From IMG/VR virus record IMGVR_UViG_3300033066_002329, positions 1 through 64,000 of that record: DNA of 64,000 nucleotides; one strand, written 5' to 3'. The notes beneath the pieces are model-generated. The model was not told the origin of the DNA, did not search any database, and saw only the letters and a list, made by a program, of their open reading frames with translations. Below, piece by piece: positions 1,882 through 43,506 of this stretch (positions are counted from its first letter, which is position 1; each line of letters opens with the position of its first letter). The translations under genes were made by a program, and so were the position numbers. Source of the stretch: a virus (lineage: Duplodnaviria; Caudoviricetes).

Positions 1882-4800
1882 TTTATTCCTGGTATATTCA
1901 TTATTTCGTTTCCTGCCTTACTAAATAATTCAGGAAAATTATTATATTTCAAAGTCTCCCAGTGAATAGGAGTTTTATTATTATTTAATGTAACTGCATG
2001 TGCTTGTCTACCATTAAAATTAATCATTCTACTTAATGAAGCTGCAGTTTTCCAATCTACCTTTAAAGCTTTTAATTGACCATTATCATTTATAATTCTA
2101 AAAATATTAGAATCAAGAACAACCATTCTTGCGGATTTGCCTGGCGTATTATCAACCTTTGTTCTACCTAATTCCATAAGAGAAATTATATGACAAGCAT
2201 ATAAATTTTGTAAACCATTATCTTCTTTCCCTTTAATTAAAACGATGCCTCCATAAGTCCACAAATTTGTATCATTTGATTCTTCAATCACTTCAGACTC
2301 TTTATATAATTTATCATAATCTCTATCAGTTAATCCAAAATCAATTAAAACTAATTCTTCGCCACCATCTCTCTTAACAACTCCATAAGATGAAATTTGC
2401 CCTAAATCTCCAGCTAATGCATCTGTTCCATCCATAAATTCTCTAAGAGAATCTACAAATGAATCATTATATAATCTATCAAGTAAAGGTTTTTGTAAAA
2501 AATATTTTGCCTTTCTGCCATTGTTTTCATCTTGATGATTTATTAAGTATTTTGCAACATCTTCTAAATTAAATGTAGTTAGCATTCTAAATTCAGACTT
2601 ATTAATAGGTCTTGCAAGCTCCATTTCTACCCACAAACCATCTGGATGTGAATCAAAAACTTGAGCAAGAATATTAGAGAAATATGTATGATTTCCTCTA
2701 TCTATTTCTGTATCATTTTGAGTTATACCCTTAGCGTTCTTAGCAAGTTTCAAGACCTTGTTGTCATCAATTTGATAAACTATTCTTGAAGACCCTGAAC
2801 CAAGTCTTTTTAAATTAGCATTGCAATAAGCAACTCTTTCTTTAAATGTCTTAAGAGACTTAAAATGTTCCATATCGAATGAAGAAGGATAATCTTCTTG
2901 AATATTTTCTTCTATTTGTTGACTTTCTATTGCACGTTCATAATAATCAATTAATCCATTCTCTGTTGCAAAATACATTATATTCTCAGGCGCAAAATTA
3001 ACCGTTTCTCTACCTTTAATTTCAATACCATCATAGCCAAGTTTAAGCATTTCTTTTGATATAGAAGTATTTTGTGCAAACTCTCTTGAGTTCTTATAGT
3101 TCTTAAAAATCAAATTTTGTTGAATCCATATTTCTGCAAGATTTGTATCTCTGAAAACCATAGGATTTTTTGGTTTGCCATTAACTACAAAATAAAGTTT
3201 TCCATATTGTTTTGCCATCTTCATATTACTAAGCGGCGCCATATACAAACCTTCTCCGAATCTTGCACCTGAACCATTTTCAGTATCTAATGTACCATCA
3301 GAAGATATTCCTCTAACCATTACATTTTTTCTCTTCCATTTTCTATAATCATCAAGACTATTAGAAAATGCTTCTTGGACCATTCTTCTTGCTTCGGCAA
3401 GTTGAGCATCTCTTGATAACACTTCTTTTTCTCTATTAATACTCTGTTGATTTTTCTTATCAAGATTATCCATTTCCTTATGCCAATAAGCAGAAACTCT
3501 TGCTACAAGCTTTTTCTTAACTGAATCTGGCATTATTCTCCAACCATCAAAATGTATCATAAAATCCTTAACGACTTCAGCAAGAGGCTTCATCGTATAA
3601 TGAAAATAATCAACTCCATCTGGAGAAGTTGCGAAGTCACCCTTTGTAAATCTTGTTTCATTTACAGCCTGAGTAAACCTTGCCCAAATTTCATGTTGAA
3701 GCTTCAAATATTCTTGATGTTTTTTCTTGTTTAATTCAGGGTTTGCATACACCGCCTGTCTTCCGTTGGCCATTGTATGTTTCTTATTATATGCTTTAGT
3801 TTTTCTTGCTTGAAATAATTTTGAATTACTTCTATAGTCATCATAAGCATGTTGTATCTCATGTTCTAATGTAGAATGAAATGCATACCACATTGTAAAA
3901 TATGCATCTCTATAATCATGCTCTTTTTCCTTAGAATAATCTTCAGTTAATTTATTATAAAAGTCACTATTTGGAAATAAAACAATTTCTCTTATTTTAT
4001 CATTATCATATTCAGGCTCTTTGATATGTGTATAATGTCCTAAAACTCCACTATCTCTTGTAGCTCTTGATACCTTAACATATATTTTTGTGTTAACTAA
4101 AAAATCTGAAAGTACTTGGAATTTTTTCGGATTTTCCTGGTACACTTCAAGGAGTCTTACAGGCATTACATAATCAATATATTGATTACTCTTTACCTGC
4201 CTTACAAATGCATCTAAGTTTACCTTTGCAAGATAAATAAGAGTTTCGTTAGCTAAATCTTTAATCTCTTTCACAGAATTATAATCTTCTGCAAGAACTT
4301 CTTCATTCACTGATTTAGATTCAAAGAATTCTCTAACAAGTTTTCTAACCTCATCCAAAGGTTCCATTTCATCTGACTTTGTGTGATTAATAACTTTTAC
4401 AACTCTATCACTAAAAGCAACATATACATTACCTTCAAGCCAAGCTGTTTGACCAATTACACCATTAACATTACAAAAATTGTAAAGAAATTCTGATGCC
4501 TCTTTTTTACCTCCAAGAATAGCCTCTAAATATTGATAAAGACTATCCATTGTCCATAGACCATACTCTTGAATTTCATTTTGAAATTGCTCAGCGCTAT
4601 CTTCATGTTTAGTTTTAATTAATGCATTATAAACATCTTGTGCAAGACTTTCTGAAATTTCTGAATCCCATTCATAAAATGAATCTAAACCTATCAATTT
4701 AACTTCATAGATATTAAAACCAGCATCTTTAAGTTTTCCTATAGATAATTCCTTGGCATATTTTAAGGCTGTACTTGGACTATCTGTAAAATAAAATCCC

Positions 4801-7926: not shown

Positions 7927-7944
7927 CAATTTTAAAAACTTGAG

Positions 7945-8842
7945 ATTACGGTTTTTAGTCCCGAACTTTGGTGGGATTATGTATTCCCCATTAGTCTTTA
8001 TCCAGGTATCTTGCGATACCTATTCGGTAGTCCTGATGAGCTAACGGCCATCACTCTTATCAATTGCTTCTATTCTGCAGATACTTCTCCTATACGATGA
8101 TGCCGCACCATATAAAACTTTCACTACAATCCGCCAAACTTTGTGAGTCTAAACGTTCCTAATTCAATCTTTCGAATGTTAGGATATGAAGAACCTTTCG
8201 AAGACAATCGTGTACGGGGTTTTTACTTTGTGTTATTTTAAACATAAATAGTAGCCTTCCAAGGGCAACTTTCCATCTTTCGATAAAAAGGGTTTCATAA
8301 TGCTCGCTAAGAGACGTACCCGTACAGGGTTGGCTCGGTTCCTTTTGAGAACGGAATACCACTACGCCTCTCTGTAGATGCTGACCGCATCCCACTAATT
8401 AATTTTATACTCTCCATTTGCATCATCCCGTCAAAGATAGCCTTAAATGGTGACGTAAGTATAAAACCTTTTTGACTTATAGCACTTGCCTTGCCTGACT
8501 TGCACAATAAATCTCGACTTTCTTATTTAGATATCCCTATCCTCAACACCACGTCATTATACATGATGTATTTCTCTCATCCATTAAGACATTGAGAAAT
8601 ATACTTATCTTTTGCTTGGTTGTCCTATCCAATGTATTACTACACTGACAAGGCGGAAGTTTGCAAACTCCCCTTTATTCACCATTACTGGGTTTATCTT
8701 TCCCCAGATAATTCCTCTTTCGAGAAACTATCTGTTGAGCCACCTTACGATGACTCAGGACATTGTATAACCTTTCGACTATACCAGGCCCCATGCGACC
8801 TGAATTTTTTTCAATATTTTAAAGAACGTTTCGTTTAATTTT
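7945..8842 (-). ncRNA. large (~0.9 kb) structured non-coding RNA, GOLLD/ROOL-like candidate
   Basis: GC-richer, no credible ORF, many GNRA-capped hairpins, own promoter and terminator, next to tRNA-like genes. Confidence 0.65.
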
Positions 8843-8848
8843 CTTTTG

Positions 8849-8880
8849 CAAATATATGATGACTTTCATCCAAATGCAAA
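8849..8880 (-). promoter_or_regulatory. Bacteroidota primary-sigma promoter TTTG-N20-TATATTTG
   Basis: Matches the -33 TTTG / -7 TAnnTTTG consensus. Confidence 0.75.
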
Positions 8881-10208: not shown

Positions 10209-10237
10209 CTATACGTTTTTTTTTAAAAAAGGTTTCA
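10209..10237 (-). promoter_or_regulatory. ECF-sigma-type promoter TGAAAC-N16-CGTATAG
   Basis: Same motif and spacing as other copies. Confidence 0.65.
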
Positions 10238-22826: not shown

Positions 22827-22864
22827 AAAAAAAAACACCCAACTCTTTTGGAATTGGGTGTTTT
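22827..22864 (-). terminator. attenuator terminator of tRNA operon 1
   Basis: AACACCCAATT-CCAAAAG-AGTTGGGTGTT + T run, between leader and first tRNA. Confidence 0.85.
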
Positions 22865-22891
22865 AAGTTTCTTTTATATTTTAAATCAACA

Positions 22892-23011
22892 TCATGACTC
22901 AATATTAAATAACACACCCTCATCCAAGCTATAATCCGCTGGAGCATAACCCGCCCCGCCGTTCATCGGCATTGCAGCTGGCATGTTTGAATATGTATTT
23001 AAAGTTTTCAC
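22892..23011 (-). CDS. 39-aa leader peptide MKTLNTYSNMPAAMPMNGGAGYAPADYSLDEGVLFNIES (attenuator 1)
   Basis: GTG start, TGA stop; 18 of codons 10-30 are Met/Pro/Ala/Gly/Tyr/Asp, the downstream tRNA set. Confidence 0.8.
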   Translation of the reverse strand: MKTLNTYSNMPAAMPMNGGAGYAPADYSLDEGVLFNIES

Positions 23012-23065
23012 CTGTTGTTTTATTTTAAATAGTTAATATTTTTTGTTTTTCAATAATTTCTACGA

Positions 23066-23098
23066 CAAAGATATAAAAAAGTTTCACCTAAATGCAAA
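23066..23098 (-). promoter_or_regulatory. Bacteroidota primary-sigma promoter TTTG-N21-TATCTTTG for leader/tRNA operon 1
   Basis: Consensus match. Confidence 0.75.
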
Positions 23099-38599: not shown

Positions 38600-39304
38600 C
38601 TACCAATAATCCCATCTTGCAGAATTTCTGTGGTGATATCTGTATTCGTATTTATCGAATTCATCACCTCCGAACATCATATTCTTATAGACAGTTTGTT
38701 TAGAATTTCTTCTATCTGAACGATGGTATGGTTTTATGAAATCTTTTGGAGGATTTGCATCTCCCCATATTTGGACATCATAGAATTTTTTGCTAGATAA
38801 TTCATCATGCTTTTCATTGATTTGGCTTTCTATTACAGAATCAAACTCTTTATAATGAGTCACCCAACGAGCTTTAATTTTTATAACGAAGAAGTATGTT
38901 TGAACCACACATCTGTAACGTGGCCAAAAACTATTGTAGTCTTTATCTCCATAAGTTATTTTACAGAAGTATTTTTTAACTTCTGGCTCTAAGCCCTCAT
39001 AGACTCTTTCTGAAATATAACCGAATCCAGGACTTACATATTCGTATTTCCCTTTTCTGATTTTTTTCTTGAAAGATTTGTCTCTATTCCAGACTCTTTC
39101 TCCTACAAGTTGGATACATTTATAGAATACCCAAGCATCATCACGATTCTTGATGTCATCTCTTAAGTCCCATACTTTGTAGTAGCCATCTTTATATGGC
39201 TTTTCTAATTCTATCCAGTTTTGATTATCCTGGATTTTTTCAAGCTCCCATTTGTCTCTTTGGACTTTGAGCTTCTCTTTGTAAAGAGGATGTTTTGTGT
39301 TCAT
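38600..39304 (-). CDS. basic, Trp/Arg-rich hypothetical protein
   Basis: ORF. Confidence 0.65.
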   Translation of the reverse strand: MNTKHPLYKEKLKVQRDKWELEKIQDNQNWIELEKPYKDGYYKVWDLRDDIKNRDDAWVFYKCIQLVGERVWNRDKSFKKKIRKGKYEYVSPGFGYISERVYEGLEPEVKKYFCKITYGDKDYNSFWPRYRCVVQTYFFVIKIKARWVTHYKEFDSVIESQINEKHDELSSKKFYDVQIWGDANPPKDFIKPYHRSDRRNSKQTVYKNMMFGGDEFDKYEYRYHHRNSARWDYW

Positions 39305-39319
39305 ACGATTTTAGTTTAC

Positions 39320-39370
39320 TTACCAAAATCGCCAAACTCCTCCTGCAGTGCTTTTTAAGTTATTTTTCAT
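39320..39370 (-). CDS. 16-aa peptide MKNNLKSTAGGVWRFW
   Basis: Manual translation, ATG..TAA, A-rich upstream context. Confidence 0.35.
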   Translation of the reverse strand: MKNNLKSTAGGVWRFW

Positions 39371-39394
39371 TTTTTTATTTTTGTTTTTTATCCG

Positions 39395-39466
39395 TAGCCT
39401 CGGCAGGAATCGAACCTGCATCTGAAGTTTAGGAAACTTTTATTCTATCCATTGAACTACGAAGCC
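39395..39466 (-). tRNA. tRNA-Arg(CCT)
   Basis: Canonical, loop TTCCTAA. Confidence 0.88.
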
Positions 39467-39732
39467 AAATCATCTTGAATATCATTCCAGATTTGCTTAT
39501 TAATTTTAAACTTTGGAGTACGTTCATATTTTTCATATGTACACATCCAACAATTACATGGCCTTGCTGTCGTTCTTAAAAAAGTGCAAGACTCCCCTTT
39601 TTCTATCTCCTTAATCCACTCTTCTCTTTTTTGTGGATGATAGCTATAAGTTCCTTGAGTCCAAACTTTAATTCTTTTCTTAAACTTTACTTTTTTTTTG
39701 TAACGTCTTAGGGCTCTTTTATAATTTTTCAT
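39457..39732 (-). CDS. basic hypothetical protein with CxCxxC
   Basis: ORF; PCNCWMC. Confidence 0.6.
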   Translation of the reverse strand: MKNYKRALRRYKKKVKFKKRIKVWTQGTYSYHPQKREEWIKEIEKGESCTFLRTTARPCNCWMCTYEKYERTPKFKINKQIWNDIQDDLAS

Positions 39733-39733
39733 A

Positions 39734-39805
39734 TACTTCAGGTGTTATCCTCACCAGAATGCGTCGAAGTATTTCGATTTAGCATCTGGCTTAGCGCCTG
39801 CAGTA
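39734..39805 (-). other. long imperfect hairpin abutting start codon
   Basis: TACT.CAGG/CCTG.AGTA, CCAGA/TCTGG, TCGAA-ATAC-TTCGA. Confidence 0.4.
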
Positions 39806-39855
39806 TCTGAGTTTAATATTAAACATAGTTTTATTTTTTATAAATATACGAATTT

Positions 39856-40584
39856 TTAAGAGAACTTCTCAATCATTTTACGAGAAATCTCCTCCTTAAG
39901 TTGCAAATTTGTTTCATATTTATCAATTTCTACACCTAAATGCCTGGCAATCAAATGAATATTTTTTGTTCCATCCTCATTCATATTTGCCTTTCTAATC
40001 TTTTTATCATAATCTTCATCAAATAGATAAAGTACATGCTTTTCTCCTGCGGACTTAGACATTTTCTTTGTTGGGTCTATAAGTGACATAACCTTGTCTG
40101 CATCTCCAAATTCATATTTATAATATTTTCCATCAACTCTTTTAGATATGTCATTACAAAGGTCTATATGAGCAACTTGGTCTTTACCAACAATAATTAC
40201 ATCTGGGTCATTCATCATAATATCTGCAGCCATAAGTACAGGATATAACAATAGGCCCATATCAAATTTAACATCATCTTTTTTATCCTTGTATTGAGGC
40301 ATCTTAACAAGAGTAGGTAAACTAAGTTTGCAACATAATTTAAAAAAAAGTTCAGTATATTCTGGAGTTTGTCTTTTAATGTTTTTACAGCCAAGTCTAA
40401 TTAATTCTTGCTCTGTTACATCTGAATAATTATCAGTTGTTAGAGCATGATAATTTGCTATAAGAAATGTTACATCGTGACCCTGCGCTTGAAGCTCAAG
40501 TCCTCTCTTAATGCATCCCAAATAGTTTCCGATATGAAGTCGTCCTGTAGGTTGAATCCCAATAAGATATTTTTTTGTTTCCAT
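39856..40584 (-). CDS. trpS: tryptophanyl-tRNA synthetase (short, 242 aa)
   Basis: GIQPTGRLHIGNYLG; YPVLMAADI; VGKDQ; KMSKS. Confidence 0.88.
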   Translation of the reverse strand: METKKYLIGIQPTGRLHIGNYLGCIKRGLELQAQGHDVTFLIANYHALTTDNYSDVTEQELIRLGCKNIKRQTPEYTELFFKLCCKLSLPTLVKMPQYKDKKDDVKFDMGLLLYPVLMAADIMMNDPDVIIVGKDQVAHIDLCNDISKRVDGKYYKYEFGDADKVMSLIDPTKKMSKSAGEKHVLYLFDEDYDKKIRKANMNEDGTKNIHLIARHLGVEIDKYETNLQLKEEISRKMIEKFS

Positions 40585-41027
40585 GATAATGTTTTTAATT
40601 TTGTTTCATTTAAATTTTCTTCACAAAAACCGATAAGTGGTTTTGTTTTAATCCAAGAGTCTTTATCAGAAAGACCTTCAAGAGAAGAATCATCATCAAT
40701 TAAAATAAAATTATCAAAATTATTTTCAGCAATAAATTTTTCAAATTCTTCTTTTCTACTTATATAACCATAAATAGGAACGATACCGTCAATTTGTTTT
40801 TTGATATTTCTATTTTTAAATATTTGATTTAACTCTTCATTTTTTTTTGTTCTTCTCCTATCAGAGATAAGCCATAATTCAAAATTTAAATCATCTGTAA
40901 GCTCATTAAAATTATCTACAGCTATAGAGTTGAATTTTGAATAACCATCGCTTTCTAATTCATCTCTACGCCAAGAAGGAGTTGTAATAAGAACTCCATC
41001 CAAGTCTAATATAATTACATTTTTCAT
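40470..41027 (-). CDS. HAD phosphatase, Swiss-Army-knife RNA-repair type
   Basis: IILDLDGVL...ILIDDD; likely start ATG 41027. Confidence 0.7.
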   Translation of the reverse strand: MKNVIILDLDGVLITTPSWRRDELESDGYSKFNSIAVDNFNELTDDLNFELWLISDRRRTKKNEELNQIFKNRNIKKQIDGIVPIYGYISRKEEFEKFIAENNFDNFILIDDDSSLEGLSDKDSWIKTKPLIGFCEENLNETKLKTLSWKQKNILLGFNLQDDFISETIWDALREDLSFKRRVTM

Positions 41028-41030
41028 TTG

Positions 41031-41104
41031 CACTAGCGGCAGGAATCGAACCTGCCCACGGAGATTTGGAGTTTCCATCGCCTACCCTTGGGACATTCGC
41101 TAGT
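41031..41104 (-). tRNA. tRNA-Trp(CCA), atypical D and anticodon stems
   Basis: Loop CTCCAAA, G73, A30:C40 mismatch. Confidence 0.8.
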
Positions 41105-41198
41105 ATGTGATGATTCTCATTACTATTGAATCATCATTGAATTGCATCCTTCCTTTCGTAAGTGAGTAAGAGATTTAAAAATCTCAGCAATTCTATTG

Positions 41199-41269
41199 CA
41201 CGCCTGGACAGATTCGAACTGCCATCAAAAGTTTTGGAGACTTCTATTCTACCATTGAACTACAGACGT
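41199..41269 (-). tRNA. tRNA-Trp(CCA)
   Basis: Canonical, loop CTCCAAA, G73. Confidence 0.9.
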
Positions 41270-41278
41270 ATATTTTTG

Positions 41279-41355
41279 CAGCCACCACGGGAGTCGAACC
41301 CGTATGTATCCAGTTACTCTTTCAACTGTTTAGAAGACAGAGGAGTTATGCAGCC
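41279..41355 (-). ncRNA. rearranged tRNA-Arg(TCT)-like RNA (anticodon arm inside D-stem)
   Basis: ACTC [CTGT CTTCTAA ACAG] GAGT, then AACTGGATA, then T-arm ACGGG TTCGACT CCCGT. Confidence 0.65.
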
Positions 41356-41453
41356 ATAATAAAAAATAATTATGAATAACTGGAATTGCGATATTCCATT
41401 ACGTTATTAGCGTTGTCGCAGTCTCACTACTATACAGCCATAATTATTTTTTG

Positions 41454-41526
41454 TGACCCTAGAGGAATTCGAATCCCCATTAAAAGCTTAGAAGGCTCTT
41501 GTCCTATCCAGTTGAACGATAAGGCC
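41454..41526 (-). tRNA. tRNA-Arg(TCT)
   Basis: Canonical, loop CTTCTAA. Confidence 0.9.
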
Positions 41527-41607
41527 ATTTATAGTTAGTCTAAGTAGTTTTATGATGCCAACTATTAAATGCATCCTCATAACGGATTACTACAATCCTT
41601 GAATTTG

Positions 41608-41688
41608 TGCTAAGTAGTGGAGTCGAACCACCAGATAATCAGTACGTACATAACTATCTTTCCAAATGCATGCTTATTTGACCTCAAC
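41608..41688 (-). ncRNA. tRNA-like RNA without a recognisable anticodon loop
   Basis: T-arm GGTGG TTCGACT CCACT; stems CAAAT/ATTTG and AGATAGT/ATTATCT. Confidence 0.4.
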
Positions 41689-41692
41689 ATTG

Positions 41693-41780
41693 CGGAAGCA
41701 GTCGTATTCGAAACGAGCCCAACTAAATGGGTTCTTGTTTTCCAAACAAGCAAGAGCCACCTGCCCTATCTTCAACTTCC
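41693..41780 (-). tRNA. tRNA-Ser(GGA)
   Basis: Loop TTGGAAA, long variable arm, G73. Confidence 0.85.
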
Positions 41781-41781
41781 A

Positions 41782-41870
41782 TGGCGGAAAACGGAGCAAT
41801 CGAAGCCCAGTCAAATTAATGACCCTCTCGCTTAGCAGGCGGAGATAGAACCCTGTCTATTTCGTTTTCC
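41782..41870 (-). tRNA. tRNA-Ser(GCT) with encoded CCA
   Basis: Loop CTGCTAA, long variable arm. Confidence 0.88.
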
Positions 41871-41939
41871 ATTTTTTATGCGGAACTAAAAAGATTCAAA
41901 AATCAATTTTTACCACATATTTATTATAAAACTTAATTT

Positions 41940-42605
41940 ATGAAACCATTATATACTCAGCAACAATTTGACAGTGCTAAATCAAGAGATAAACTTCCTT
42001 GTGAATGTTATATTTGTAAAAATACTTTTTATAAAATAAAGTATGATATACAAAAACATTTAAACTCTAATAATATGCACAAAATAAAATACTGCTCTTC
42101 TAAATGCACTATTACTAAACAAACAGTTAACTGTATTCAATGTAATAAATCATTTTCTAAAGTTTTAAATCAAATCAAAAAAACAAAGAATAATTTTTGT
42201 TCAAAATCTTGTGCTGCAACTTACAACAATGCTCATAAGACCATTGGCACAAGACGTTCAAAACTTGAAATTTATCTTGAACAACAACTTACAACCTTAT
42301 ATCCAAATCTTCATGTTGACTTCAACAAAAAAGAAGCGATTAATTCTGAACTTGACATCTACATTCCATCTTTAAAACTTGCATTTGAGCTTAATGGCAT
42401 CTATCATTATGAGCCAATTCATGGTCAAAATAAATTAAGTCAAACACAAAATAACGACCAACGTAAATTCCAGGCTTGTATTGAACAAGGTATATCACTA
42501 TGTATAATTGATGTCTCTAAACAAAAATACTTTAAAGAAAGTACAAGTCAAGAGTTCTTAAGTATTATAACTGATATCATAAACAATATGTCAAAGAACA
42601 TTTAA
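41940..42605 (+). CDS. PD-(D/E)XK homing-type endonuclease antisense to tRNA-Ser genes
   Basis: C-terminal half nearly identical to 9248..9928. Confidence 0.8.
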   Translation: MKPLYTQQQFDSAKSRDKLPCECYICKNTFYKIKYDIQKHLNSNNMHKIKYCSSKCTITKQTVNCIQCNKSFSKVLNQIKKTKNNFCSKSCAATYNNAHKTIGTRRSKLEIYLEQQLTTLYPNLHVDFNKKEAINSELDIYIPSLKLAFELNGIYHYEPIHGQNKLSQTQNNDQRKFQACIEQGISLCIIDVSKQKYFKESTSQEFLSIITDIINNMSKNI

Positions 42606-42609
42606 TCAG

Positions 42610-42696
42610 AGGAGAGTGGAGGAACCGACCCCCTATCAGCTCATCACCGAAACCATAGTTTTCAAGACTATTTGCGCTCCATGCACGGCACTCTCC
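42610..42696 (-). tRNA. tRNA-Ser(TGA), degenerate T-loop, U73
   Basis: Loop CTTGAAA; acceptor GGAGAGT/ACTCTCC; T-loop TCGGTT. Confidence 0.65.
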
Positions 42697-42706
42697 ATTT
42701 TTATTC

Positions 42707-42740
42707 AAAAAAAAATCCTGATTCTTTTGGAACCAGGATT
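42707..42740 (-). terminator. attenuator terminator of tRNA operon 2
   Basis: AATCCTGGTTC-CAAAA-GAATCAGGATT + T run. Confidence 0.85.
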
Positions 42741-42781
42741 CAATATTGTAATTTAATTTATCTCTTATAACGTAAAAAAAA

Positions 42782-42868
42782 TTATGACAATATATGGCCT
42801 GGTTCGGAGTTTCTTGAACTCGAACTTGAACTTCTCCAAGACCATCTATATGTTGTTAATACTTTCAT
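42782..42868 (-). CDS. 28-aa leader peptide MKVLTTYRWSWRSSSSSSRNSEPGHILS (attenuator 2)
   Basis: ATG..TAA; 13 of codons 8-21 are Arg/Trp/Ser, the downstream tRNA set. Confidence 0.85.
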   Translation of the reverse strand: MKVLTTYRWSWRSSSSSSRNSEPGHILS

Positions 42869-42913
42869 TACTTTTAAATAGTGTAAAATTTTATTTTTTA
42901 TATTTTCTACGCA

Positions 42914-42945
42914 CAAATATATAAAAGGTTTCAATTAAATGCAAA
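42914..42945 (-). promoter_or_regulatory. Bacteroidota primary-sigma promoter TTTG-N20-TATATTTG for leader/tRNA operon 2
   Basis: Consensus match. Confidence 0.75.
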
Positions 42946-42993
42946 TATTTTTTTAATTTTATTTCTTTCTACTTGAGAATCAGTGTTTTATTT

Positions 42994-43257
42994 TTAATTA
43001 CGACGTGAATTATACTTATACCATTCAACTCTTGTAACTTTTTGTATAAATTTAGGATTTGCTAAAAAAAACATTTTTATTTTTTGACATACTTCATATT
43101 TTTCTAACTGACAAAAATATTCAAGTGCCTCTTCTATAACAAAGCTAGGTATTAGTTTAGATTCTTTTTTCTTAATTTTATTTTCAGCCAAGTCAGCTAA
43201 ACCATTGTAAACTTTTATAGATTTTTTTTCAACATTTATTTCTTCATTTATTTTCAT
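42994..43257 (-). CDS. hypothetical protein
   Basis: ORF. Confidence 0.55.
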   Translation of the reverse strand: MKINEEINVEKKSIKVYNGLADLAENKIKKKESKLIPSFVIEEALEYFCQLEKYEVCQKIKMFFLANPKFIQKVTRVEWYKYNSRRN

Positions 43258-43263
43258 AACTAA

Positions 43264-43506
43264 TTAACATAATAATCCATTCCCTTTTCCTCCTCCTAAG
43301 ATATTATTGTGTCGTGGAAGATTTCTTAAAACTTTTTTTGAAACTTCAACAGACTCACTCTCTTCTTCACTCCTATCGGGAGTTTCTTTTTTTAATACAA
43401 GAGCTAGGTGGTCCTTAATTATTGAAACTTGTTTTTCATTCAAAGTTTTAGCATCTGAAATCTCAAAATAACCTTGTAACCAATATATAAATGCCTCTGT
43501 TGTCAT
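43264..43506 (-). CDS. hypothetical phage protein (FIYWLQGYFE)
   Basis: ORF. Confidence 0.6.
   Translation of the reverse strand: MTTEAFIYWLQGYFEISDAKTLNEKQVSIIKDHLALVLKKETPDRSEEESESVEVSKKVLRNLPRHNNILGGGKGNGLLC

Follow-up and report, generated by a model that had tools for sequence, protein, structure and literature searches.

The enterobacterial leader-peptide attenuators trpL, hisL, pheL and leuL are built to a common layout: a promoter, a short ORF starting with MK, a run of regulatory codons, the alternative helices 1:2, 2:3 and 3:4, and a terminator placed before the first structural gene. They regulate biosynthetic enzymes. Some leaders sample several amino acids, a shortage of any one of which leads to readthrough: thrL senses Thr and Ile, and the ilvGMEDA and ilvBN leaders sense Ile, Val and Leu. 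Others act on genes of the translation machinery, namely the pheM leader of E. coli pheST and the His leaders found before hisS paralogues in bacilli (Naville and Gautheret 2010, PMC2965389). T-box riboswitches serve the same goal, in that they tie tRNA charging to the state of one specific tRNA by way of a choice between terminator and antiterminator, but they bind uncharged tRNA directly and need no translation.

We analysed a phage locus that shares the enterobacterial layout but lies in front of tRNA genes. The window (the whole stretch of 64,000 nucleotides that was analysed) corresponds to positions 1–64,000 of an 88.9-kb source contig, and the locus occupies its minus strand. On in silico evidence, we regard it as very probable that positions 42945–42707 constitute a transcription attenuator of the ribosome-mediated (leader-peptide) type and that a phage tRNA operon is gated by it. 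Most likely, the phage makes this tRNA set and a Trp-tRNA synthetase (TrpRS) only when Arg, Trp and Ser codons are decoded slowly. In contrast to trpL, hisL, pheL and leuL, the phage attenuator regulates tRNA genes, its region 2 falls within the ORF, before the stop codon rather than after it, it has no sequence or Rfam-model similarity to those leaders, and its setting is a huge phage of Bacteroidota. The phage leader samples several amino acids, as thrL and the ilv leaders do, but its amino-acid set is fixed by the downstream tRNAs (three amino acids here, six or more in sister units) and its codon choice tracks isoacceptor anticodons. As in pheM–pheST and the hisS leaders, a gene of the translation machinery is attenuated, since TrpRS belongs to the unit and two of the leader codons are Trp codons; pheM and the hisS leaders act on synthetase genes alone, whereas the phage leader precedes tRNA genes. 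Unlike a T-box, the site carries no T-box motif. Mechanisms of this class are known; what is new is the target, tRNA genes, and the signal, isoacceptor supply. In the full-text literature we found no description of leader-peptide attenuation of tRNA genes, phage or cellular, subscription-only papers being outside the scope of this search.

To count as a classical ribosome-mediated attenuator, a locus needs a promoter followed by a short translatable ORF, regulatory codons that correspond to the products of the operon, an intrinsic terminator standing between that ORF and the first gene under control, an antiterminator exclusive of that terminator, and an anti-antiterminator that overlaps the regulatory codons and so lets the position of the ribosome decide the fold. 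At the level of sequence, the phage locus fulfils all of these requirements. The evidence consists of the anatomy of the locus, statistics, covariation and a thermodynamic model. Two orthologues were available for comparison: L147, a 1.1-kb metagenome contig, and L019, an IMG/VR contig with a near-identical copy in L146. The elements of the attenuator are as follows.

42908–42945, minus strand: promoter block with a Bacteroidota-type −33/−7 motif and GAAAC-N16-CGTA; block conserved in the paralogue and orthologues

42782–42868, minus strand: leader ORF of 28 codons plus TAA stop, from ATG at 42868 to TAA at 42782; frame conserved in L147 and L019

42806–42847, minus strand: regulatory codon run with core RWSWRSSSSSSRNS, codons 8–21, recognised by codon content

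42821–42845, minus strand: region 1, the anti-antiterminator strand, in which AUGGUCU (42845–42839) and GUUCG (42825–42821) pair with region 2

42794–42806, minus strand: region 2, CGAACCAGGCCAU, containing the antiterminator strand GAACCAGG at 42805–42798

42730–42741, minus strand: region 3, the terminator 5′ arm, containing CCTGGTTC at 42737–42730

42707–42724, minus strand: region 4, the terminator 3′ arm (42724–42713), running into a tract of nine T (42715–42707), from a hairpin search

The promoter block contains the −33 element TTTG at 42945–42942 and the −7 element TATATTTG at 42921–42914, and positions 42945–42914 satisfy the definition of a Bacteroidota housekeeping-sigma promoter (TTTG at −33 and TAnnTTTG at −7, 19–21 nt apart). 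The pattern TTTG-N19-21-TAnnTTTG occurs 12 times in the window against 2.9 expected. Overlapping these elements, at 42932–42908, is GAAAC-N16-CGTA, of which the window holds eight copies against 0.09 expected, at 10212, 11077, 23061, 29601, 33499, 34855, 42908 and 61956; seven of the eight lie on the minus strand. This second motif resembles a promoter class, either ECF-type or phage-specific, and at both tRNA leaders of the window it overlaps a housekeeping-type promoter. The 40 nt between promoter and ORF are A-rich and lack a Shine-Dalgarno sequence, and the ORF that follows, with its ATG at 42868 downstream of the motifs at 42945–42908, satisfies the requirement for a short translatable frame. 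On its other side, an AU-rich spacer of 40 nt separates the ORF from the terminator hairpin. Two other frames were considered and rejected. A TTG start at 42934, which would give a 50-codon version of the ORF, was discarded because it lies inside the promoter block. The 26-codon alternative frame at 42845–42765, rich in Lys, Phe and Glu, corresponds to none of the downstream tRNAs and is only 10 codons long in L019.

The codon run reads AGA TGG TCT TGG AGA AGT TCA AGT TCG AGT TCA AGA AAC TCC. Thirteen of the 14 codons of the core RWSWRSSSSSSRNS fall in the set AGR/TGG/TCN/AGY, all of which are read by tRNAs encoded downstream, and the regulatory codons are thus cognate to the supply of the operon. 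The remaining codon, AAC, has no cognate tRNA downstream and counts against the attenuator reading. Across all six frames, the 88.9-kb contig offers 76,503 stop-free windows of 14 codons; the core is the single maximum among them (binomial P 1.7e-11), and the best Arg/Trp/Ser window outside the leader reaches 10 of 14 codons. The leader uses the Ser codons TCT, TCC, TCA, TCG and AGT even though two of them, TCC and TCG, each make up 2% of the Ser codons in the long ORFs of the phage; it therefore samples every Ser isoacceptor encoded downstream. The genes that follow the terminator are listed below.

42609–42696, minus strand: tRNA-Ser(UGA), the first gene after the terminator (ARAGORN, 95% thresholds; Rfam tRNA-clan score 32.5 bits, E 0.001)

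41940–42605, plus strand: homing-endonuclease gene, not part of the switch (PHROG 559, 1.5e-12; PHROG 3339, 1.7e-10)

41783–41871, minus strand: tRNA-Ser(GCU)-like gene with encoded CCA (de novo MFE type-II cloverleaf, anticodon loop CUGCUAA; L019 synteny)

41694–41776, minus strand: tRNA-Ser(GGA) (ARAGORN, 95% thresholds)

41453–41526, minus strand: tRNA-Arg(UCU) (default ARAGORN, Rfam)

41030–41269, minus strand: two tRNA-Trp(CCA), at 41198–41269 and 41030–41104 (default ARAGORN, Rfam)

39856–41027, minus strand: HAD phosphatase of RNA-repair type and a short TrpRS (Pfam HAD_SAK_2, 9.9e-21; tRNA-synt_1b, 3.3e-38)

With default settings, ARAGORN and Rfam call only Arg(UCU), the two Trp(CCA) and an Arg(CCU), and the Ser(GCU) gene at 41871–41783 is not called by ARAGORN. 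We accept the low-scoring Ser tRNAs because Ser(UGA) and Ser(GGA) are called at 95% thresholds, Ser(GCU) folds, and the order matches that of the orthologous L019 operon, where Ser(UGA), Ser(GCU), Ser(GGA), Arg(UCU), Trp and Trp follow one another in the same order and are all default ARAGORN calls. The three Ser tRNAs, falling below the default thresholds, could be impaired. The HAD phosphatase belongs to the ‘Swiss Army Knife’ family PF18143, the TrpRS has 242 aa, and their ORFs overlap by about 115 nt as listed. The original prediction, made from the letters alone, had placed a leader ORF at 42868..42782, taken its core codons to be those of the downstream tRNAs, and named three Ser, one Arg and two Trp tRNAs with TrpRS in the operon. 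Its ORF coordinates are exact, the codon statement holds for 13 of the 14 codons, and the Pfam match bears out TrpRS; the tRNA list stands on condition that the Ser calls rest on the 95% ARAGORN thresholds, the fold or the L019 synteny.

The homing-endonuclease gene is antisense, sits between tRNA-Ser(UGA) and tRNA-Ser(GCU), and is missing at the equivalent place in L019. From the leader to the HAD and TrpRS genes, a hairpin and terminator search returned no terminator-like site of note. Because this gene on the opposite strand breaks up the operon, it is an assumption that the distal genes are under the control of the promoter at 42945–42908. Two further elements were seen among these genes. 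A degenerate second Arg(UCU)-like tRNA at 41278–41371 (minus strand) has good anticodon and T arms and a poor acceptor stem, and ARAGORN finds it only at 85%. Following tRNA-Ser(GGA), an element of about 85 nt at 41607–41688 (minus strand) is near-identical to L019 positions 4355–4440, although the identity of the tRNAs on either side is only about one half; its fold is a cloverleaf in which an ‘anticodon’ arm of 11 pairs goes with a small loop, and it has no Rfam match at E up to 10. A 21-nt pattern taken from this conserved tRNA-like element recovered only the L019 contig.

Between the leader ORF and the first regulated gene stands an intrinsic terminator (42741–42713), as the attenuator layout requires: a stem of 12 pairs with the loop CAAAA, followed by the nine T, with a hairpin energy of −14.2 kcal/mol. 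The tRNA-Ser(UGA) gene begins 10 nt past the T tract, which therefore leaves no room for a separate promoter. The segment GAACCAGG pairs perfectly with CCTGGTTC in an 8-bp 2:3 helix of −13.0 kcal/mol, an energy reached by 3% of dinucleotide shuffles for this unit. This helix, supported by a compensatory change in L019 described below, is exclusive of the terminator. The leader RNA as a whole folds with z = −3.6, and none of 200 dinucleotide shuffles was equally stable. In stepwise folding of the nascent transcript, region 2 is bound to the regulatory codons, with pair probabilities of 0.8–0.98, before region 3 exists; the 2:3 helix is preferred once region 3 and the loop have been made and region 4 has not. 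The ground state of the full transcript, 1:2 plus 3:4, has −36.9 kcal/mol, compared with −31.2 when 2:3 is forced. The requirement for an anti-antiterminator overlapping the regulatory codons is therefore met in silico and, because the same segment (region 2) pairs with the regulatory codons before the terminator is transcribed, all four regions of a trp-type attenuator are present.

We then modelled the ribosome as a mask covering the A site −15 to +12 and folded the pre-terminator transcript, which was chosen because the terminator dominates at full-length equilibrium: there it exceeds 90% for most ribosome positions and barely varies with position. The probability of the 2:3 helix was at least 99% with the A site at codons 2–17, 84% at codon 18, 46% at codon 19, 0% at codons 20–28 and 2% at the stop codon. 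Seven other modelled units (W02a, W01e, W01g, W02c, WIN1, L147 and L019) show the same step at the end of the cognate run. The step suggests that a ribosome held on the Arg/Trp/Ser run permits antitermination, whereas a ribosome past the run covers region 2, so that termination can follow. As the terminator wins at equilibrium, the choice has to be made kinetically, as it is in the trp attenuator; the switch therefore depends on kinetics outside the model and on transcription–translation coupling in a Bacteroidota host. Without any ribosome, the truncated transcript also prefers 2:3, and behaviour in the absence of translation is therefore uncertain.

Based on these results, we propose the following mechanism. 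Transcription would start at about 42908, and a ribosome would translate the 28-codon leader behind the advancing RNA polymerase. With plentiful Arg-tRNA(UCU), Trp-tRNA and Ser-tRNAs, the ribosome would reach codons 20–29 or the stop and cover region 2 (42806–42794), so that the terminator at 42741–42713 with its nine T could fold and transcription would end 10 nt short of the first tRNA gene. Were any of these tRNAs scarce, the ribosome would linger on codons 8–18, melt the 1:2 helix and free region 2; the freed GAACCAGG could then pair with the terminator 5′ arm as that arm emerges. The polymerase would read through into the Ser, Ser, Ser, Arg, Trp and Trp tRNAs, the RNA-repair-type HAD phosphatase and TrpRS. 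The predicted outcome is that the phage regulates its own tRNA supply by negative feedback, separately for each operon. Leader translation, kinetic coupling, ribosome–polymerase coupling in the host, the direction of the response in vivo and any change in readthrough are inferred, and for the dependence of readthrough on translation and aminoacyl-tRNA supply there are no experimental data. The RNA-library data consist of assembled contigs over small parts of the stretch and give no transcript ends, strand or level, and so speak neither for nor against termination.

Comparison with the orthologues of this unit bears on both the frame and the helices. The leader N-termini of L147 and L019 differ, and every indel is a multiple of three, such that the ORF frame is preserved. 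Both orthologues keep the core, the EPGH-x-LS end, the stop codon and the promoter motifs, and the spacer is not conserved; start codon, reading frame, stop codon and the spacing from stop to region 2 are conserved. In L019, one position has been altered in three regions at once, from A to G in regions 2 and 4 and from T to C in region 3, which retains eight of eight antiterminator pairs and gives two compensated pairs in the terminator, with region 1 following through a U-G wobble. The 1:2 helices also form in L147 and L019. The joint change is a single evolutionary event, yet its pattern is the one that the alternative helices would predict; the covariation for this particular unit rests on this one diverged orthologue. 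The original prediction had described GAACCAGG at 42805–42798 as a perfect 8-bp complement of CCTGGTTC at 42737–42730, which is true base for base, and had seen in it a classical antiterminator placed after the sensing codons, an interpretation now supported in silico by the mask model, the 1:2 helix and the L019 covariation. The conservation in related phages that it proposed to check was found, in that L147 and L019 keep frame, core, stop and promoter and region 2 covaries with both terminator arms.

Other searches for relatives of the locus returned little. A scan of IMG/VR with a 15-nt core pattern gave chance matches only and no orthologue, and a blastn search of the whole region against phage records matched the TrpRS gene alone. 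One metagenome match, L145, was rejected as a chance hit in GC-rich bacterial DNA. Contigs at least 99% identical to parts of 41000–43300 occur in a riverine metagenome run from another study, and the phage itself is present in river and wastewater samples.

At the DNA level, the TrpRS gene is 78% identical to LR756502.1 (642 kb) and 73% identical to LR756501.1 (735 kb), which are Mahaphage-clade huge phages; for these and the related phages above 634 kb, the predicted hosts are Bacteroidetes (PMC7162821). We examined twelve units for a match between leader and tRNAs, two of them in the window and ten in LR756502.1 and LR756501.1, in the regions upstream of mapped tRNA clusters. The ten consist of a short ORF, a 10–14-bp terminator and a tRNA block, and five of them carry the same promoter-type motif. 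The second unit of the window and examples of the pairings are given below.

22827–23098, minus strand: paralogous attenuator in the window, which shares its promoter block and its TTCCAAAAGA terminator loop with the attenuator at 42945–42707

Lys/His/Phe leader, before a Phe-His-Phe-Lys3 block

Ser/Arg leader, before an Arg-Ser-Arg block

Leader with seven Gln, before four Gln tRNAs

Leader with all six Leu codons, before five Leu tRNAs

Asn/Leu/Thr/Val leader, before an Asn-Leu-Val-Ile-Thr block

The leader at 23098–22827 has a GTG start, is rich in Met, Pro, Ala, Gly, Tyr and Asp, and precedes the tRNA block Pro, Pro, Asp, Asp, Tyr, Tyr, Pro, Ala, Ala, Gly (three genes) and Met. All twelve leaders are enriched in the amino acids of their own downstream tRNAs. 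Matches to the own set number 131–140 of 329 leader codons, compared with 51–54 (sd 12) for permuted pairings, and none of 200,000 permutations reaches the observed match at either the amino-acid or the codon level. The matching rule excepted, the leader peptides of different units are wholly different in sequence. Across the twelve units, the duplexes between region 2 and the terminator arm give a combined z of −7.2, and in every one of them the best partner for the antiterminator falls within the final third of the ORF. Further units with matching leaders and tRNAs occur in IMG/VR relatives and in L012. Not every cluster has such a unit, as none was found in the examined stretches around the tRNA clusters of L007 and L009.

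The matching extends to the level of isoacceptors. Leaders that precede Arg(UCU) use AGA/AGG only (7 of 7 Arg codons, two lineages), and those that precede Arg(ACG/GCG/UCG) use CGN only (8 of 8 Arg codons, three lineages); one leader before both anticodon classes has one codon of each class. With codons treated as independent, codon class is associated with anticodon class at P = 1.6e-4 (Fisher's exact test), a value that overstates the evidence because of shared ancestry. Similarly, ATA codons precede Ile(UAU) blocks. This isoacceptor-level matching is needed by a sensor of tRNA supply and not by a sensor of amino acids, and is our main argument for tRNA supply as the signal.

The alternative that survives best, improbable as we judge it, accepts the switch as real and takes its signal to be amino-acid starvation or poor charging (Ser, Arg, Trp) rather than tRNA abundance. 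A ribosome senses aminoacyl-tRNA, the level of which is set by the amino acid and the synthetase as well as by the tRNA; TrpRS belongs to the regulated unit; and, to our knowledge, all known leader-peptide attenuators respond to charging. However, the chief output of the switch is tRNA genes, which bring no relief of an amino-acid shortage. Amino-acid sensing would also require neither the agreement between Arg codon class and anticodon class (AGR with UCU, CGN with NCG) nor the sampling of rare synonymous codons for every downstream isoacceptor.

Far less room is left for the possibility that the leader is a chance ORF or a small independent gene, and that the hairpin is an ordinary leaky terminator or insulator through which the tRNAs are constitutively transcribed. 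Short ORFs are frequent in AT-rich intergenic DNA, and a promoter and terminator can bound a small transcript, for or against which there are no transcript data. This explanation is nevertheless strongly disfavoured by a codon run that is the extreme of 76,503 windows, by the fit of leader composition to the own tRNA set in 12 units (0 of 200,000 permutations), by a frame kept through indels together with a covarying antiterminator, and by peptides that are unlike one another between units save for the matching rule.

Least plausible of all is a translation-independent RNA switch in which the codons bind tRNA anticodons in a T-box-like manner, or a protein binds the leader, to choose between 2:3 and 3:4: the alternative helices are present irrespective of translation and T-boxes do govern synthetase genes by direct tRNA binding, but no T-box or other Rfam family matches at E up to 10, the start codon, frame, stop and its spacing to region 2 are conserved, and up to 14 different consecutive codons would be without precedent as specifiers. 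In the Rfam searches, Trp_leader, His_leader, Leu_leader and Thr_leader had no match at the gathering score in the window and none at E up to 10 in 39000–43400, and the T-box riboswitch had none at E up to 10 in 39000–43400. Known RNA families were accordingly rejected for the site: no leader, T-box or riboswitch was found, and only chance-level sRNA matches with E >2 remained.

Why and when phages use their tRNA genes is debated, and compensation for codon usage, host tRNA degradation and escape from anticodon nucleases have been proposed. Returning to the attenuator with tRNA supply as its signal, we tentatively extend it to a hypothesis on which we remain slightly more doubtful than convinced: that Mahaphage-clade phages carry a decoding-speed sensor before each tRNA block, with a leader that samples the codons of the block down to isoacceptor class, and switch on the block and its linked repair and charging enzymes only when those tRNAs are short. 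If true, this would amount to autogenous tRNA homeostasis and to an automatic response, specific to the target, whenever host tRNAs are depleted or anticodon nucleases act in defence. No earlier case is known of leader-peptide attenuation that governs tRNA genes, and this one would extend this form of control to RNA genes and to viruses of Bacteroidota. A cis-encoded sensor for each tRNA block would show that these phages gauge tRNA supply in real time, and simple reporters would then allow a direct test of how phages use tRNAs. The leaders would further serve as a functional annotation of the tRNAs, indicating which odd-looking genes, such as the three low-scoring Ser tRNAs, are used and what they decode. 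Since the units are compact and modular, with one scaffold carrying different codon sets, they could serve as codon-specific reporters of translation speed.

Two observations outside the attenuator concern other RNA genes of these phages. In the 735-kb phage LR756501.1, two adjacent tRNA genes with CUA anticodons (L013 986–1140), labelled ‘Pyl’ by ARAGORN, suggest amber suppression or recoding. In the window, a GOLLD RNA (Rfam RF02032) lies on the minus strand at 7937–8372, scoring 156.5 bits over the full model, and a Bacteroidota-type promoter motif is found about 470 nt upstream of it, at 8849–8880.
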